Below, one piece after another: positions 1,452 to 62,860 of a DNA stretch of 64,000 nt. The stretch spans positions 108,872,001-108,936,000 of the forward strand of contig OX597822.1 of the NCBI GenBank assembly GCA_951406725.2. The letters are read 5' to 3'. Both the position numbers and the translations under genes were made by a program. The notes below the pieces were generated by a model that was given only the letters and a program-made list of their open reading frames with translations, did no database searches and was not told the DNA's origin. The DNA comes from Octopus vulgaris (taxonomy: Eukaryota). Numbering within the stretch: the stretch's first letter is position 1; the number at the start of each line of letters is the position of its first letter.

Positions 1452-1945
<494 letters not shown>

Positions 1946-25094: not shown

Positions 25095-25246
25095 TTCATC
25101 CCTCTCTCCATATCAATCGTTCCATCTTTTTTTTTACGATCCCTTTTGATCGAAAACCTCCTCCCTTTTTTTCTCCCTCAAAAGAAAAGCTCTACTTTGT
25201 AATTTGTCCCCTCTGTGTTCAGCCCTGTGTGACTAATAAGGAAACA
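25095..25246 (+). mobile_element. Probable L1/Tx1-type 3' UTR fragment ending at an (ATCT)n tract; second shorter tail at 25524-25553
   Basis: Ends TGTCCCCTCTGTGTTCAGCCCTGTGTGACTAATAAGGAAA, similar to the tails at 56166-56216 and 51654-51705(-). Confidence 0.5.
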
Positions 25247-25274
25247 TATCTATCTATCTATCTATCTATCTATC

Positions 25275-25333
<59 letters not shown>

Positions 25334-25335
25334 CC

Positions 25336-25409
<74 letters not shown>

Positions 25410-25420
25410 ATGTCTGACTC

Positions 25421-25491
<71 letters not shown>

Positions 25492-26036
25492 GTGTATCTA
25501 TCTATCTAATTATCTATCTCACATGTTCAGCCCTGTGTGGCCAACAAAGAAAGTTATCTCACATACTCTCTCTCTCTTTCTTGCTTTCTCTCTCTCTCTC
25601 TTTCTCTCCCTTTCACTCTCTCTCTCTCTACCTTTGAATCTCTCATCTCTAACTATATCTCCGAATGAGTTTGTTCTTGTCCACTCAAGCAAGACTTCCC
25701 CTACAGATTATAATACAACTGCAGATCCCTGATACATGCATACATAAATAATTACATACACATACATACACGTAGGCATATACACATTCAAAAATACATA
25801 TATACATATAATTATATCAAATATTAAAATACATTGTATTCTATAAATATGCTCTTCCCATATAGGCGCAGGTGTGGCATGTAAGTCAATTGTCATCTTG
25901 TATAGCATCAGGTCTAAAAAAGCTTTGTGAGTGGATTTGGTGGATGGAAACTGAACGAAACTCGTCGCATGTGTGCTTGTGTGTGTTGTAATACACACAC
26001 ACACAGAAACACAAACACACACACACAAACACAAAT

Positions 26037-29660: not shown

Positions 29661-30081
29661 AGGCGCAGGAGTGGCTGTGTGGTAAGTAGCTTGCTAACCA
29701 ACCACATGGTTCCGGGTTCAGTCCCACAGTGTGGCATCTTGGGCAAGTGTCTTCTGCTATGGTCCCGGGCCGACCAATGTCTTGTGAGTGGATTTGGTAG
29801 ACGGAAACTGAAAGAAGCCTGTCGTATATATGTATATATATATATATATATATATGTGTTTGTGTTTGTGTGTCTGTGTGTGTGTCCCTAGCATTGCTTG
29901 ACAACCGATGCTGGTGAGTTTACGTCCCCGTCACTTAGCGGTTCGGCAAAAGAGACCGATAGGATAAGTACTGGGCTTACAAAGAATAAGTCCCGGGGTC
30001 GATTTGATCGACTAAAGGCGGTGCTCCAGCATGGCCGCAGTCAAATGACTGAAACAAGTAAAAGAGTAAAGAATAAAGAGT
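29661..30081 (+). mobile_element. SINE family C, full length (tRNA-like head, internal TA/TG microsatellite, LINE-derived tail)
   Basis: Near-identical to 33965-34423, 40503-40890 and 31621-32019(-). Confidence 0.9.
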
Positions 30082-34619: not shown

Positions 34620-36055
34620 CTCTTTTACTGTTTTACTTGTTTCAATTATTTGACTGCGACCATGCTGGAGCACCGCCTTTAGTCGAGCAAATCGACGCGG
34701 TACTTATTCATTGTAAGCCTAATACTTATTCCATCGTTCTCTTTTGCCGAACCGCTATGTGACGGGGACATAAACACACCTAGCAATGCTAGGGGGGGGG
34801 GAAAGACAGACACACAGACGTACACACACACACATACACACACACACACACACATGCAACGACACTTGGCACAGTTATTAGTCTTTTCCTACATAGGAAC
34901 TACCCAGAGTAGCAGATACAGCTCTGGAGACCGTTTTGTAGAAGACCTCAGCTTGGTCCTCCAACCACTACGTGACTTCAGAAATCAAGGCTGCATCATC
35001 TGGGAAACGCTTTCCTTTCAAAATCAACTTCATGGCTGGGAAGAGGTGAAAATCAGAGGGTGCAAGGGAAGGAGTTCATAGCTGCACGCCTGTGCTTCTG
35101 ATCTGGCGACAAACGAATTGTGGACCGGAGTGTTGTCCTGCAGGAGGAGGATGCCTTTGCTGATCTTGCCCCGCCTCTTGATTTTGATAGCTTCTCTTAA
35201 TTTCCTCAAAAGTGAAGCATAATAGGCTCCTGTAATTGTGGTATCCTTTGCCAGGAAATCTGTCATCACTACTCCGTCCTGGTCCCAGAAGACTGTGAGC
35301 ATAACCTTGTCATCGGAGGGTTGCACTCTTGCCTTCTTTGGAGGAGGTGAGTCACGGTGCTTTCACTGCATTGACTGGGCTTTGGTCTATGGATCATATT
35401 GATGGACCCAGGTTTTATCCTGTGTGATCAGTCTTTTGAAAAATTTTGACTCATCTTCTTGGCACATCTCCAAATTCATCCTCGAGCACTCAACGCGTTC
35501 TTGCTTCTGGAAAGGTGTGAGCAACCTGGAAATTCATCTGGCAGACACCTTTTGCATATGCAAATGATCATGAATGATAGTTTCCACAGACCCGGTACTA
35601 ATCTTGACCTTATGGGCTATTTGGCGAATAGTTATGCGTTGACCTTCCAAAATGGCAGCCTCAAGTTGACGGACAGACGTCTCATCAACGGCAGAAGGGG
35701 GCGACCAGATCTGGGAGCTGTTTCCACAGAGTTCCGACTATGTTTCAATTCACAATGCCAGCATTTTACAAGGTCATATGATGGGGCATCATCACCATAA
35801 GTTACTTTCATTTCATCAAAAGTCTCCCGTGGTGTGCGTCCTTTCAAAAAGAAAAACCAGATCACTGCTCGACACTCAACAGGCTCCATTTCACACTTGA
35901 CTCAGTTCAAACACCTGTAAATCTGAAACCACAATTAGTTCAGAGCTGTAATTCGCCCCTTAATCTATAGAGGTATAAATAAGTGTACATGCAAAATTTC
36001 AGCTAGATCAAACAACTGCAAGTGGGTCAGGGGCATTACTTATTGAACGCCCCTC

Positions 36056-38773: not shown

Positions 38774-39172
38774 TAAGGCGGTGAGCTGGCAGAAACGCTA
38801 GCACGCCGGGCGAAATGCCTAGAGGTATTTCGTCTGCTGCTACGTTTTGAGTTCAAATTCCGCCGAGGTCGACTTTGCCTTTCATCATTTCGGTGTCAAT
38901 AAAATAAGTACCAGCTACGCACTGGGGTCGATATAATCGACCTAATCCGTTTGTCTGTCCTTGTTTGTCCTCCTTGTGTTTAGCCCCTTGTGGTAAGTAA
39001 AAAGATAGGTATTTCGTCTGCCGTACGTTCTGAGTTCACATTCAGGTTAGGTCGACTTTGCCTTTCAACATTTCGGGGTCGATAAATTCAGTACCAGTTA
39101 TGCACTGGTGTCGATCTAATAGACTGACTCCGTCCCCAGATATTTCGGGCCTTGTGCCTAGAGTAGAAAATT
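38774..39172 (+). mobile_element. SINE family A dimer (full unit with Tx1-like tail, then 5'-truncated unit with standard tail)
   Basis: The core GTCGACTTTGCCTTTCA occurs twice; junction AAAGATAG|GTATTTCGTCTG at about 39008. Confidence 0.85.
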
Positions 39173-46934: not shown

Positions 46935-47376
46935 TATAAACATATATTTGGAAGATCCTGGAAGGACTTGTCCCAAACTTTGGCATCGAGAGTCACACAA
47001 ATGCCAGAACCGGGCGCCACTGCGTAGTACCAAGGACTCCAAATTTGCCATCAAGATGTAGGACAAGATATTGTGATAGCCTGGGCTTCAGAGGCCCACA
47101 TCTCTTCAATATCCTCCCAAAGAACCTGAGGGACCTGCATGGTGTAGATGCGGATGTCTTTAAAGTAGGACTAGACCTCTTCCTGTCAGGTGTCCTGGAT
47201 GAACCAACTTCACGGCAGGAGGTGCAGATGAGGGCAGCTGCATCGAACTCTCTCATGCATCAGATGGCGTTTGCTAAAAAGCATCCGTGAGGTAAAATCG
47301 TGTAGCAAACCAAATGGCGGTGCCCCAGCATGGCCACAGCTCATTAGCTGAAACTGGAAAAATCAAAATCAAAATC
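46935..47376 (+). mobile_element. CR1-group LINE 3' fragment (ORF2 C-terminus, 3' tail, (AAAATC)n)
   Basis: YIWKILEGLVPNFGIESHTNARTGRHC...SLGFRGPHLFNILPKNLR...FKVGLDLFL...RAAASNSL*; tail GGCGGTGCCCCAGCATGGCCACAGCTCATTAGCTGAAAC. Confidence 0.85.
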
Positions 47377-49902: not shown

Positions 49903-50194
49903 TACTACTACAACTAATTCTACTACTACTACTGCTGCTGTTATTGTTACAGGTAATGGTGATTATGATGGTGATGATAATGATGAGGGGAACGAGGAGA
50001 TGGAGGAGGGTGCTGGAGGAGGAGGAGGAGGATTCCAGTACAGATGCAAGGCAAGAAATATGGATGGTGGAGCTATAGCGATGAACTCGACCCCAATGGA
50101 CACCTTGTACTTATTTTATCTAACCACGAATGTCGACATCGGCGGAATTTGAAATCAGAAGGTAAAGCAGTACGAAATGGCTCTAAGCATTCCC

Positions 50195-50666
50195 CATCCC
50201 CGCACACTAACAGAAAAGTACGCGTTCCAGTTTGGTCAGACGTGAACTGGGGCAAGGCACGACGGTCAGGTGATAATATATGACGGAGATGTTATGTGCA
50301 TTCGCCACCTCTGCCCGAGTTTTCATGAATAGCTTTCTCTCGGCCCACTTCTTGGCGACATTGTCCTTTCTGCTCGTCATCTCGTCCCAGTTCTTCTCCA
50401 CCAAACAAAACCCGAGTAATTTAAACGCTTCCTCCTTCTAGCCTCCCACGGTGTTCTTGGACCGCATGGACCAGCTTCTCCAGGTGCGGATCTGCAGTCC
50501 CACTTACTTTTTTTGGTTAAAGTTTGCACCTTTCATCGCCCTGTTTTCTTTTAGAGCAGTGCCGACTAAGTCTATACTACCTCTTCGAGACCATAACGGG
50601 GACGTCATCTGCATTTGCTGACATGTTTCTCCCACATCTTAGTTCATGTGGGATGCCTCTCAACGG
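50195..50666 (-). mobile_element. L1/Tx1-clade ORF2 reverse transcriptase fragment
   Basis: LRGIP...SANADDVPVMVS (YADD motif), GANFNQKK*VGLQ, KLLG..EKNWDEMTSR..WAERKLFMKTRAEVAN..VIYYHLTVVPCP..KLERVLF. Confidence 0.8.
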
Positions 50667-51533
50667 CTTAAACCTTTCGCAAGCATTATTAATCATCGTG
50701 GTATATGTTACAAAATCGTCGGACTCATTTTTCTTTAAATTTAAAGACTCCCACCGAATGTTAAATAGCGAAATTATTTCGCTAAAAATATTAGTCAAAA
50801 TATCTATTGTTTCATTAAAACAATTCCGTGGGCTTTCTCGGCAAAATAAAGTTACAAAATCTTTCGTGTTCCGGAGAGGCAAGCTTTCGCAAAAGTAGCT
50901 TTATCTTCCTTTCACTAGACCATCCCTTGCATTCCTCTCTGAATGTCTTCGTATCGTCTGTAATACGCAATAAAGGTGTTTCCTTCATCCGGTTTGTAGT
51001 GAAATTCTTCGATGGAATTTGCTACACCGCATGCTGAAAACTTTTCTGTCCTATTTCTCGAATTCAGTAACAATTCTGTTAACTCCTGTATTTGTTGCTG
51101 TTGAGCGAACGGTCTTCTCCCCAGAGCTCGCAAGATGGGAGAAGTCATAAATGTAGTCGTTTGCTATTTGTAAGACCCGTAGAAGAGAAAACAGGTCAAC
51201 CCCTGACATCGAGAGCATCGACGGATGGATAAATGCACATCCAGGCTCAGCATTTGCGTAAGAAGTCGGGGACAAGAAACAAGAAGAAATGATGAGAGAA
51301 AGTTGGGGCGTAAGAGTACAACAGGGGTCGCCACTACCCCCTACTGGAGCCTCGTGGAGCTTTAGGTGTTTCGCTCAATAAACACACGCAACGCCCGGCC
51401 TGGGAATCGAAACCGCGAGTCCGCTGCCCTAACCACTGGGCCATTGCGCCTCCACACTCTGTGCTGCTCTTGTTGCTTTACAACTGTTTTCAGTAACACT
51501 TCCATTTCGGTACTATTCAAAACCTCGTCGCCA
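50667..51533 (-). mobile_element. Ty3/Gypsy LTR retrotransposon: PBS and gag relic, interrupted by a SINE
   Basis: PBS TGGCGACGAGG (51533-51523) right after the LTR end ...TGACA. ATG at 51505; IEEFHYKPDEGNTFIAYYRRYEDI, SLFNIRWESLNLKKNESDDFVTY...INNACERFK. Confidence 0.8.
51105..51454 (-). mobile_element. SINE family B head with a fourth type of 3' body, inserted in gag
   Basis: Head matches family B; body 51105-51275 has no match to the other copies. Confidence 0.75.
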
Positions 51534-52191
51534 CTGTCATATCGCAAGTTCAGACGCAGTACCTTCACCGATGACGTGCCTTCGCTCCACTACCGACTAT
51601 TCAACTAGTGAACTCTTAACTTCCGAACTCTCGACCTCCGAACCTCGTATCTTTTTTATTCATCACTTACGCCGTAACAGAGAGGGGTCATCACAAGGAC
51701 ATACAGAACACCATAGTGGCAAATAAACATGAAAGGAATAAAAAATGGAAAAATGTACAATGAAATAGATGGTGATGAAATGGTTGCATGCCCCCCACTC
51801 ACATGTAGTATCATTTGAACCTTCTTACTTTCAATTTGTAGTATTTTTCTTTTTTCCTTATTTTTTCACTATCCACACCATTTTTTTACGCCTTTTGCTT
51901 CATTTTTTTAAACCATTTTACTTTGACTTTTTTAAATATCAGATGTAAGGATCTAGTTCCTGTAGTTCTACCATTGGTGGCAGTTAATCGAACTCCACCA
52001 CGAACCCCGGCTGCTCAACATTACACTTTTCCTTCAAGTTTATATGGATTTTTCTTTATCGATTAGGATAGCTTTGGTGTGTTCACCGTACATCAAGCAA
52101 TAAGGGTTAAGGCAACTCAACCTTATCAGTCTTTCGCTACATATGCTTTTAGCATATGTCACGAAATTCCAGCTATATTTTGTTCGTTTTG

Positions 52192-52672
52192 TAATAATGA
52201 AATTTTTGCATACAGTGCTCAGGTGCACCACAACTTGTCAGAAAGTGCATATAAAGTACATGCAGTAATGTAGAAATGTCTGGAAAGTGAACATGCTTGT
52301 GTGTGTATGGAGGGGAGAAAATCAAGTGTAGTGTTGGCGAATCTCAGGAAGCATGGAAGTCTTGAAGGATGCAGTGCTCCGACAACTAACAACCGATGCC
52401 GGCAGTTTGTTCCATGCTTCAGCAACTCTCAGCGTGAAGAAATGTTTCCTGAAGTCATGGGAGCTGTGCTGTTTTCTTACTTTGTAAATATGTCCACGGA
52501 CGTCAGATGGGTGGAGTTTGAAGAGGTGCTCAGAGTTATTGTTTGTGCGATGGTTGATAATTGTATGGGTGTCTGCCAAGTCAGCTGCCAGACGTCGGAG
52601 TTTCAATGTGTCCATGCCCAGGGGAGTAAGGCGTTCAGGATATGGCAAATGCCTGATGGAGGGTATTCTTTT
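52192..52672 (-). mobile_element. CR1-group LINE 3' fragment nested in the ORF1-only element
   Basis: KRIPSIRHLPYPERL..LKLRRLAADL..RGHIYKVRKQ..RKHFFTLRVAEAWNKLP..FK, then 3' UTR ending CATTATTA. Confidence 0.85.
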
Positions 52673-53138
52673 GGAGGGTTTTCTTGCTTGTTTGTCATGT
52701 TCCACTCTTGGCGCCACGTCCTCCATTCTGGTTAGTGTCGCCGTTTCTTCTCTTTGCTGTCCAAATGTGTTCTCTATTATGCTTGCTTCTATCTCCTCCC
52801 CCTCTTCTTCTCAACCTCCTTTTCTACCTCTTTCTAGACCTTTTTTCAAAAACCTTTCTTTTCAACCACTTTTACGACTTCCTTCTCCACCTCTTTTTCT
52901 GCTTTTTACTTTTTCTGTTTCTCCGGTGGATAGCCCAGTCTTTCTTCCCTTTTTCCCCACCTCAAATTCCTTCTCTATTCCTGTTGTCTCCTTCTCATCT
53001 TCCTGGACCACATCATTCATTTTCTCTTGTTCTTCAGCCTGTCCCATTTGTTGCTCTTTCTTTTCTCTCTTGGGGCACCTCGCCTTTATGTGGACTTTCT
53101 GACCACACAAATAACATAGGAGGCTGCAGTAACCAGCC

Positions 53139-53601
53139 AGAGTCCAGAAGCTGGCTACCCGCATGGTTCATGGTCTCAAAAATCTGTCCTATGAAGAAAG
53201 GCTGGGGACGCTCGACCTTTATTCTCTTGAAAAACGCCGCCGCCGTGGTGATCTCATTCTCGCCCACAACATCATAAGCGGAAAGTGTAACCTCTCGAAA
53301 GAGCTGTTCTTCACTCCTGCTCCAGAGCGTCGGCTGCGGGGTCATTCCGAAAAGCTCTACCTGCGACGATTTCATCTCAATCGAAGGAGAGGAGCTTTCT
53401 CCGTCCGGGTTGCGGATCCGTGAAACAAGCTGCCAGACGAGATGGTAAAGATGCCGACGACCGCTTTGTTCAAAGCCTCCCTGGACCTCAAGTGGCCTGA
53501 ACTCTTTACATGAACACCACCCTGTACTTAACTCCATGTCCCCCTACATGGCCTTGCTATTTGCTTTTGAGCCAAATTAACTAACTAACTAACTAACTAA
53601 C
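53139..53601 (+). mobile_element. CR1-group LINE 3' fragment with (TAAC)n tail, nested in the ORF1-only element
   Basis: RVQKLATRMVHGLKNLSYEERL..LYSLEKRRRRGDLI..LRGHSEKL..FSVRVADP*NKLP. Confidence 0.9.
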
Positions 53602-54610
53602 ATATTTCATCCAACTCTCGTTGTACTCTGACAACTTGCTTGCTACAGTATGTTTGTAGGAGTACCCATTCGTCTGTCTTTATGGCATCAGTGGAGTGCT
53701 TTATCGCTTCTTTGTTTGTGAATCGCAACTTCACTGTGCCAAACCTTCCTCCTCTTGTTATAAACGTGATGACCTTTTTATCTTCCTTTAAACACTTCTC
53801 AATGTCATCCATCGTAGCTATTTCTATTTACCTTGTCGATACCTTCAGTGTTTTGTATATCACTGTCTTTTTCTAAACTCGATTTGTTAAGTCAACTGGA
53901 GGCCTTCAGTTAAGTTTGTGGCCTTCCTTTTCCAATAGCTTTCCGGTTTCTTTCAGCTTTCTTGGCTCAATTCTAACTTCCCGAACTTACAAAGTTTCTT
54001 CTTCTGTTCCTATACCAGTTGTAGCCGCATAATTGTGGCTATTTGCTGGTCCAGTTTACATTTCACTTTTTCTCTCCGGCTCTCCCATAACTAGGAAGAA
54101 AAAACACAATTCGACAAAAACTCGTTATTAAAACAATTTCAACAAGTAACAAATGTGGTACACCTACGAGGGGAGATCTTTAACAATTATAACAATATCA
54201 CACTTACATCAACGGAATCGTAAAGATATCAAAAAAACACAGCCCCCCCCTCTAAATGTTCGTTGACCCACCAACCTCCGAACCTCGTGTCTTACTGGCT
54301 ATCACGTCCACTATTTATACGTAATCGACTAGCCTACTTTTCGTCTGGGGGTATCTACACAACAAAAGGAACAATAATGATTTCTGCTAAATGTACAAGC
54401 TAGACATTTTGGGGAATTACATCAACCCCAGTATTTCACGGGTACCTGATTTATCGACTCCGAAATGATGAAAGACAACGTTGACCGCGGTAGTAATTTT
54501 AACTCCTAACATAACCGGACGAAATGCTACCAAACATTTTGCCTGGAGTGCTATCGATTCTGCCAACTCTTAACTACTACTACTACTACTACTACTACTA
54601 ATACTACTAC

Positions 54611-55586: not shown

Positions 55587-56222
55587 AAGGCGTCGAGCTG
55601 GCAGAAACGTTAGCACGCCGGGAGAAATGGCTAGCGGTATTTTCTCTGCCGCTACGTTCTGAGTTCAAATTCCGCCGACGTCGACTTTGCCTTTCATCCT
55701 TTCGGGGTCGATAAATTAAGTACCAGTTACGCACTGAGATCGATGTAATCGATTTAATACCTATATCTGTCCTTGTTTGTCCCCTCTATGTTTAGCCCCT
55801 TGTGGGTAGTAAAGAAATAGGTATTTCGTCTGCCGCTACGTTCTGAGTTCAAATTCCGCCGAGGTCGACTTTGCCTTTCATCCTTTCGAGATTGATTAAA
55901 TAAGTACCAGTTACGCACTGGGGTCGATATAATCGACTTAATCCCTTTCTCTGTCCTTGTTTGTCCCCTCTATGTTTAGCTCCTTGTGGGCAATATAGAA
56001 ATAAGAAACGTTAGCACGCCGGGCAAAATGCTTAGCAGTATTTCATCTGCCGTTACACCCTGGGTTCAAATTACGCAGAGGTCGACTTTGCCTTTCATTT
56101 TCGGGGTCGATAAATTAAGTACTAGTTACGTACTGGGTTCGATGTGATCGACTTAATCCGTTTGTCTGTCCTTGTTTGTCCCCTCTATGTTTAGCCCCTT
56201 GTGGGTAATAAAGAAATAAGAA
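55587..56222 (+). mobile_element. SINE family A head-to-tail trimer, each unit ending in a Tx1-like tail
   Basis: Units 55587-55820, 55821-56005 and 56006-56222 each end TGTCCTTGTTTGTCCCCTCTATGTTTAGC(C/T)CCTTGTGGG...AGAAATA. Confidence 0.9.
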
Positions 56223-58784: not shown

Positions 58785-58990
58785 TTTTAGCACAAGGCCA
58801 GCAATTTCGGGGGAAGTGTATAAGTCAATCACATTGACTCCGGCATTCAAATAATATATATATTTTATCGACCTTGACAGAATGAAAGGCAAAGTCGTCC
58901 TCAGCAGCATTTGATATTAGAATGTTAAGTCGGAAGTATTACTGTTATGCACTTTTAGTTCTGCGTTAACGATTCTGTCAGATCGCCGCA
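58785..58990 (-). mobile_element. SINE family A, diverged
   Basis: ATGAAAGGCAAAGTCG core and TAACGATTCTG head. Confidence 0.75.
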
Positions 58991-61619: not shown

Positions 61620-62860
61620 ACGGGTCTTGAGTACGTACAACGTATCTAACTTCTTTCTTTGGAGCATAGTTGAAGAGTTTCCAGGTGCTTCCTACTCACG
61701 AAGAACCTACATAGAATTGGCCATGTGAAAGACAGCTCTCTTCTAGATGGAGACCGACAAACTGCAGTGTCCATGTGAGTGACAGCTCTCTTCTAGATGG
61801 AGAACGAGTAATTGTAGTGTTTAATCTTGGGACTTGTTGATGGTCATTGCGTAACTGATGTTCACTCAGATTTACAATCGTTGCAAACGAAACGGGACAT
61901 CTGTTGGTATTAGCAATATTCTAGTTATAAATACGACGGGTCCCTTACCACGTCCAGAGGGGATTTGGCTTCGATAATGAGAGGCTGTATTTCAGTCACA
62001 AACATACCCATTCCACAGCACAATCTTGGCAGATCTATGTTTCTGAGAAGCATGATGACTGCATTCATCTTCAATTCAAGGCTGAGAGACGGCATAACAG
62101 TTGACTCCAGGTTGTCAAGAAATTCAATGGGATAATGTACAGTATCGTACTGTTCTACAGCTTTACGTATAGATTTACAGCTCTGGGCATCTGGGATCGT
62201 TTGTGAAAGATGTTCATTGATGGCCTTCACTGCAATGTTTTGGGGGCTACGACTAATCTTTCACACAGCCTCTCATCGTTGGGTTGGTGGATTTCAAAAT
62301 CGGTCAACACTTGATTAACTAATATATCAATGCTTTCCCTAATAGCTCAAACTCATGAAGGATCAATACATCCTTCAGTATCAAGGGATACATTACCGTC
62401 ACCAAGTTTCAGAAGCTTCTGATCAAAATCTGCGAGAACTTGATGCTGTGCCCGCATGTTATTTCTTAAGCTGAGTTTACTATGTGGCTATAAAGTTGCC
62501 GATTTCACGGAAAAGCCAGAAGGATCTGCGCATTTCCCCTTTGATATATCAAATGAAGTTTGATCGAATTTCCCAGAAAACTACCGTGATTATTCCGATG
62601 CTTGTAGTGCTGTTTATGAATAACATTCGGTGTTCTATCCAAGGGCTCCAATGTGTGTTTGTGCGCTGTTGTACATTCATCCTCCCAAATTGTCATACAT
62701 ATTTGCCATACTAGGGCATCTCCTGAATTTATCTTTAAAAGAAACATGGACATTTCATTCCAAATTGAGGGATGAATTAACAGCTGAATGAACTGCTCGA
62801 TTTCCATGTAAATTTGTAGCGCCAATTTCAGATGAAGCTACCACACACTCAAATTCATTT
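61620..62860 (-). mobile_element. Helitron RepHel relic, PIF1-family helicase domain (pseudogene)
   Basis: VASSEIGAT..HS, DECTTAHKHTLEPLDRT, LSLRNNMRA..LLKLGDG, YPIEFLDNLE..MP..LELK..IMLLRNIDLPRLC, YAMTINKSQ, HGQFYVGSS. Contains a 50-bp tandem duplication at 61721-61820. Confidence 0.85.

Follow-up and report, generated by a model that had tools for sequence, protein, structure and literature searches.

We propose, with a probability of roughly 40%, that a SINE subfamily, two short retrocopies and an ORF1-only element carry related TG-rich 3′ ends whose source was a single LINE lineage, probably L1/Tx1, and whose spread was a matter of inheritance and tail swapping, not of a single enzyme that reads a fixed hairpin. 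All of them lie in one window of Octopus vulgaris DNA (the whole stretch analyzed, 64,000 nucleotides of contig OX597822.1), which is microsatellite- and SINE-rich animal DNA. The original prediction was stricter, with one Tx1/L1 reverse transcriptase (RT) reading one tail in every passenger. Part of it stands: chance does not account for the relatedness of the ends, which lie 3′-terminally in insertions flanked by target-site duplications (19/20, 9/10 and 10/10 bp in three insertions), as expected for LINE-mobilized passengers, and L1/Tx1 is a sensible candidate for the donor. The single tail gave way to three variants, and the element differs from the SINE exactly in the hairpin. The compared features, with their coordinates in the window, are as follows.

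55587–56218 (+): SINE A trimer, with a tRNA-like head and shared body; all three units end in the TG-rich tail 1
56163–56215 (+): tail 1, terminal copy of the trimer; 4-bp hairpin with a CTTGT loop, directly before AATAAA
55766–55816 (+): tail 1, internal copy of the trimer; hairpin able to form
55950–56000 (+): tail 1, internal copy of the trimer; hairpin able to form with two one-sided changes
38775–39168 (+): SINE A dimer; tail 1 internal at 38952–39001 with a broken hairpin, C-rich tail 2 at the dimer end
25119–25244 (+): orphan end 1, a 126-nt 5′-truncated retrocopy; 9/10-bp duplication at 25109–25118 and 25245–25254
25525–25554 (+): orphan end 2, a 30-nt insert; exact 10-bp repeats at 25515–25524 and 25555–25564, read from the sequence
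51654–54273 (−): ORF1-only non-LTR element; decayed ORF from 54088, T-rich 3′ UTR, AATAAA and a short A run
51654–51705 (−): 3′ end of the element; first 30 nt resemble tail 1, last 22 nt not significantly alike
54274–54293 (−): target-site duplication of the element, 5′ copy, 20 bp, 19/20 identical
51634–51653 (−): target-site duplication of the element, 3′ copy, 20 bp

The predicted alignment between the element end (51705–51676, minus) and the terminal SINE tail (56163–56191) was borne out, with 25 of 30 columns alike and one gap. After this block, both ends have a 15-nt spacer, a GTG in the same register and then AATAAA. The match also withstood shuffled controls: when the last 107 nt of the element were dinucleotide-shuffled 5000 times, its local score of 33 was never reached, and each of the 1170 remaining 107-nt tiles in the window scored lower (runner-up 28, in the TG-rich interior of another SINE), the match itself having been chosen after the fact. 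Against two other SINE tails, the element end was equaled by 5 and 2 of 5000 shuffles; local comparisons with the 38952 tail and with either orphan were not significant (370, 455 and 4002 of 5000), and a whole-length global alignment with the longer orphan was equaled by 1 of 3000. A tail profile built from six tails, with the ORF1-only element left out, returned the element end as its top non-training match (E 0.014). The next match (E 0.12) was the unrelated TG-rich SINE interior, which passes global shuffles as well (21–22 of 3000). Splitting the element end located the similarity: the first 30 nt were significant against the SINE tail (0/3000), and the last 22 nt, the stretch corresponding to the SINE hairpin, were at chance level (377/3000) and marginal against the orphan (136/3000). 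The similarity between element and SINE tail is real, weak and about 30 nt long, shorter than the ∼50-nt shared tail first proposed.

The ORF1-only element sits within LTR-like DNA and has received two insertions of its own.

50791–51653 (−): DNA into which the element inserted: an LTR-like sequence (3′ part), a motif near 51530 that resembles a primer-binding site, and a gag-like ORF with a frameshift
53140–53610 (+): presumed CR1-like 3′ fragment, the younger one, inserted in ORF1; depth above 1e6 in runs X1–X3
52192–52680 (−): second presumed CR1-like 3′ fragment inserted in ORF1; joint 52181 to 52688

The 5′ part of the LTR-like host sequence lies at ∼54365–54274. The LTR and primer-binding-site labels are our assumption, as is the tie of DUF7083 to gypsy gag; the gag-like ORF matched DUF7083 in two frames at E 1e-4, below the cut-off. 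We take both inserts to be CR1-like from their translations. The insert at 53140–53610 is absent from one contig of run X5, and the one at 52192–52680 is skipped by contigs in X1, X2 and X3. At least seven insertions are nested in the region as a whole (50060–54575): SINE A, the LTR element, the ORF1-only element, the two CR1-like pieces, a SINE at 51275–51455 and an RT fragment.

Within the decayed ORF there is a CCHC-type knuckle near 53116–53072 (zf-CCHC E 0.057, below the cut-off), and its spacing, together with the AATAAA end, looks L1/Tx1-like on our assumption. ORF1 had no homologues among 1231 protein candidates and none in Pfam above the cut-off, no match in the Atlas with a shorter ORF1 piece as query, and no useful match in the PDB; its predicted model had a pLDDT of 45. 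Queries spanning ORF2 from the RT to the C-terminus gave no significant tblastn match in 51654–54273. Contigs across 51742–52170, likely from paralogous copies, pass straight from the last part of the ORF region into the 3′ UTR, which leaves no room for ORF2. A variant at 53655 was common to 12, 8, 18 and 8 contigs in four out of four runs (contig counts, not copy numbers), and another at 51821 to 3, 6, 6 and 6 contigs in four runs; at the junction positions listed, there was at most one contig per run. With several contigs on the body in each run and at most one covering the junctions, the element is a member of a small multi-copy family. Positions 51668–51673 were covered by one contig per run and by zero in X2, and coverage of the last 25 nt came from single contigs alone. 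The loose contig ends, among the matches listed, were all taken up by the CR1-like inserts. The element shows three traits of a HAL1-type element: no ORF2 before the 3′ end, a target duplication with an A-rich end, and multiple copies.

The tRNA-like head of SINE A was called by reading the sequence, and neither ARAGORN nor Rfam returned a match for it. The SINE A body matched 17 times in the window; its pattern had zero matches in contig collections from viruses and other genomes, and two body motifs were absent from one supplementary file of PMC4824008. Among 16 SINE A 3′ ends in the window, four carry tail 1, nine carry the C-rich tail 2 (assigned at ≤6 of 1000 shuffles, one of the nine being the reference copy) and three are ambiguous. 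Tail 1 is therefore not how SINE A usually ends; with so few ends carrying it and nine carrying a second tail, tail 1 is likely the mark of a SINE A subfamily with a swapped tail. All four tail-1 copies are within multimers, and three of them are internal. The dimer at 38775, which has a direct repeat of 10/11 bp (a possible target duplication), has its internal junction in common with the trimer. The second units of the dimer (39008) and the trimer (55820) begin at the identical head base, suggesting that the multimer junction likely spread as a unit.

Tails similar to the terminal one were found elsewhere in the window, at 38952–39001, 55766–55816, 55950–56000, 25203–25243 and 25523–25551. 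The hairpin ascribed to the SINE version (GCCC-CTTGT-GGGY) can form in three of the four SINE tails but is absent at the aligned place in the element, and the orphan ends break the stem. Pair counts over seven ends were not above shuffles (279–341 of 500), which gives no sign of stem covariation, and folding z-scores of single tails ranged from −1.95 to +0.32. The element has a CTTGT hairpin of its own near 51701; we rejected it as evidence, since it aligns with the SINE's upstream CTTGT, which is unable to pair, and since 4 of 134 unrelated sites likewise form four pairs.

At 39143–39155 (+) and near 58800 (−), tail 2 likewise closes the CTTGT loop seen in tail 1 with a stem of 4 bp, but of other bases. 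The stems read GCCC/GGGT in tail 1, and GGGC/GCCT and TGGC/GCTA in the two tail-2 copies. Double stem changes occur only between tail 1 and these two copies, and the full stem is kept in only two of the nine tail-2 copies. Tail 1 is composed of short repeated TGTCC/CCTTGT words, and its likeness to three tail-2 copies was weak (8, 4 and 2057 of 3000 shuffles), the third copy giving no alignment. Judging from their sequences, tail 1 and tail 2 may be variants of one signal.

That the tail has an existence outside the SINE is indicated most strongly by the orphans. The last 42 nt of orphan 1 are 83% identical to tail 1 (0/3000 shuffles), and its first ∼75 nt, which do not match the SINE A body, are likely a LINE 3′ UTR. 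Both orphans are best read as 5′-truncated copies of a LINE-like 3′ UTR. The stretch 25109–25564 holds two independent truncated insertions of the orphan type at opposite ends of one (TATC)n tract, an arrangement that hints at a microsatellite target.

An RT of the expected clade is represented in the window by a single piece.

50210–50663 (−): internal fragment of an L1-clade ORF2, spanning the YADD region through the thumb, with both sides truncated

The original prediction placed an L1/Tx1 RT fragment at 50195–50666, and this was confirmed as to clade: 50213–50663 (minus) matched protein P0001 in tblastn at E 5e-39. Both P0001 and a second protein, P0005, contain RVT_1 and zf-RVT. Compared with solved structures, P0005 matched human L1 ORF2p (E 2e-41) and R2 (1e-22), and only L1 and R2 types appeared. 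By homology, the fragment is L1-clade ORF2, likely of the Tx1 type. Named relatives of this RT family come from Argonauta hians and Octopus sinensis. Having no tail of its own, the fragment links no RT to tail 1 and shows the presence of the clade only. We also set aside its proximity to the element as evidence, as a gag-like ORF and LTR-like DNA lie between the two and the fragment abuts a tail-2 SINE. At 50060–50663 (−), the RT fragment (end 50210) runs without a break into a SINE A body that lacks its head and carries tail 2 (50191); either template switching, giving a chimera, or an insertion accompanied by a deletion may account for the fusion.

Searches for the donor end covered contigs and proteins. 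The tail pattern had zero matches in contig collections from other genomes, viruses and metagenomes. Scans of contig collections for ORF2 C-termini gave 194, 26 and 32 pattern matches, none of which was confirmed, and the orphan's open frame, used as a query, found zero proteins reading through into the tail. Among 17 ORF2 C-terminal relatives, only P0018 continues past the ORF2 end, by 50 aa on inspection. None of the three ends resembled this read-through, the first ∼150 nt of an L1/Tx1-type 3′ UTR, above background (28 of 150 shuffles against the element's UTR), and the read-through stops short of the terminus.

Tail 1 is missing from four further LINE ends in the window (scores 12–19). One of these belongs to a clear pair: a LINE fragment at 46940–47375 (+), which we take to be CR1/L2-like, and a second SINE family (30017–30062, +) have a common 3′ end (0/3000 shuffles), and the LINE end near 47365 with this SINE is a textbook SINE–LINE pair. 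Their terminal stem differs on both sides, by eye. Another LINE 3′ end, at 1560–1945 (+) and presumably R4/Dong-like from its translation, has a TAA-type repeat in common with an oppositely oriented SINE A end. Two further frames look, as we read their translations, like pieces of a mariner-type transposase (35030–35362, −) and of a Helitron helicase (61925–62260, −).

In the history that we favor, the ORF1-only element would have arisen by deletion as a half-L1-type derivative, with the 3′ UTR of its parent retained, and the orphans would be 5′-truncated copies of a related LINE. SINE A would have gained tail 1 by template switching, with multimers arising later, and for each passenger the ORF2 protein of the cognate family would have made the copies by target-primed reverse transcription. 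For the SINE subfamily, recognition was likely, in part, sequence-dependent, and the three tail variants likely answer to related, not identical, RTs. One SINE A body with two tails matches the tail exchange of mollusc SINEs described in the available parts of PMC4824008 and PMC11481361. The element in LTR-like DNA and the orphans at (TATC)n are placed as in Tx1 families, which target transposons, LTR elements and microsatellites according to the available part of PMC4494074. A broader claim, that an octopus L1/Tx1 lineage keeps sequence-specific 3′-end recognition and carries the SINE subfamily, the half-L1-type element and the truncated copies by means of the tail, is possible although we hold it rather doubtful.

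The strict form of the prediction, in which one Tx1/L1 RT recognizes one ∼50-nt hairpin tail and mobilizes all three passengers, draws on the common register from the TG-rich block to AATAAA and on the hairpin that holds in three of four SINE tails; contigs of other copies stop before the last 25 nt, and the family end might be more SINE-like. It is nevertheless quite improbable given the chance-level last 22 nt of the element, the lack of covariation, the stems broken in the orphans, the tailless RT fragment, and the mostly internal position of tail 1 (three of four copies) in a SINE whose 38775 dimer ends in tail 2. Alternatively, the tail could have come from another ORF1-bearing LINE clade with long target duplications (e.g., I/Nimb), with tails 1 and 2 as versions of one hairpin signal, since the weak likeness of the two tails means that both could come from a non-L1 partner. 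The 4-bp stems of different sequence on one CTTGT loop in tail 1 and two tail-2 copies fit such an origin, as do the bivalve Meta SINEs that use Nimb and CR1-Zenon tails (available part of PMC11481361) and the rarity of L1-clade SINE tails, 3 among >800 LINE families (PMC3747384). We consider it unlikely, however, with seven of nine tail-2 copies lacking the full stem and one of three tested lacking any alignment to tail 1. The knuckle spacing and AATAAA end, which look L1/Tx1-like, may also speak against another clade.

The two remaining explanations concern the element alone. The SINE and orphan ends could be homologous and the element's match convergent, a likeness of 3′ UTR ends that are TG/pyrimidine-rich ahead of a poly(A) signal. 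An unrelated SINE interior that scores 28 against 33 and passes global shuffles points this way, as does the build of tail 1 from short repeated words, but the clean shuffle results (0/5000 and 0/3000) and a match that comes to its end precisely where the element does, with AATAAA in register, make convergence decidedly unlikely. The direction could also be reversed, with 3′ transduction or a template switch having brought a decayed SINE A tail into the ORF1-only lineage. SINE A is abundant in the window, and a LINE–SINE fusion is present at 50210/50191; yet the match in the element has no SINE body before it, and orphan 1 has the same tail behind non-SINE sequence, leaving this route very improbable.

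LINE-tailed SINEs and half-L1 elements are already known; an animal SINE with an L1/Tx1 tail would be new. The original argument that such a tail is unusual was overstated, as shared tails are common in LINE/SINE pairs and L1-clade tails are known in SINEs of maize/sorghum and Chlamydomonas (PMC3747384). Cases are ZmSINE2/ZmSINE3 with LINE1-1_ZM in maize and SINEX-3_CR with L1-1_CR in Chlamydomonas (PMC3747384). A 2013 table of 58 SINE–LINE pairs contains no animal SINE with an L1/Tx1-derived tail, and none was found in the literature searched; Repbase, Dfam and the 1994 octopus SINE paper may hold these families. The tail motifs were absent from the relevant paper texts searched, from four of the eight supplements of PMC9115989 and from eight supplements of PMC11481361, and the available portions of PMC4758252 and PMC8967140 contain nothing on tail 1. 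O. vulgaris has 80 L1-Tx1 families, 13 of them recently active, and a SINE load of 11.6%, with one "U-L1" SINE family named in the accessible text (PMC13282606).

If the donor is L1/Tx1, there would be a natural animal pair, and a partner would be named for part of the large octopus SINE load. Such a pair would bear on the model in which L1-clade RTs ancestrally recognized their 3′ ends strictly and those of mammals and some plants gave this up, a model that so far rests on plant and algal cases (PMC3747384). If the donor belongs to another clade, the result would be one more ordinary SINE–LINE pair plus an uncatalogued ORF1-only family.

Among known systems, the closest to the element are HAL1 and other ORF1-only non-autonomous LINEs such as HeT-A and Ag-Sponge (available parts of PMC5753468 and PMC5786205). 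The octopus element is like the HAL1 type, as there described, in its single ORF1-like frame, lack of RT, A-rich end, target duplication and several copies; it differs in its invertebrate host, in an ORF1 without an L1/Tx1 match and in an end that resembles a SINE tail. ZmSINE2/ZmSINE3 and SINEX-3_CR are like SINE A in having a tRNA head, a short 3′ sequence as the putative L1-clade end and a possible hairpin (PMC3747384). In those SINEs, the LINE is identified and the stem covaries, whereas SINE A has a candidate donor, no covariation seen and an animal host. SINEU of crocodilians is, like SINE A, thought to be moved by Tx1; in the available part of PMC4494074, its link to Tx1-Mar is target preference, with no LINE found that has the SINEU-1 3′ end, whereas the link here is a shared end. 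Among molluscs, conserved-domain SINEs (MetaSINEs, with a 66-bp Meta domain after the tRNA head, and their relatives) exchange tails with CR1, CR1-Zenon, L2 and Nimb as partners and share ends of 35–61 bp at 72–95% identity with their LINEs; the term Tx1 does not occur in the available main texts of these studies (PMC4824008, PMC11481361). MetaSINEs, as described in those portions, and SINE A are alike in joining one head and body to different tails.
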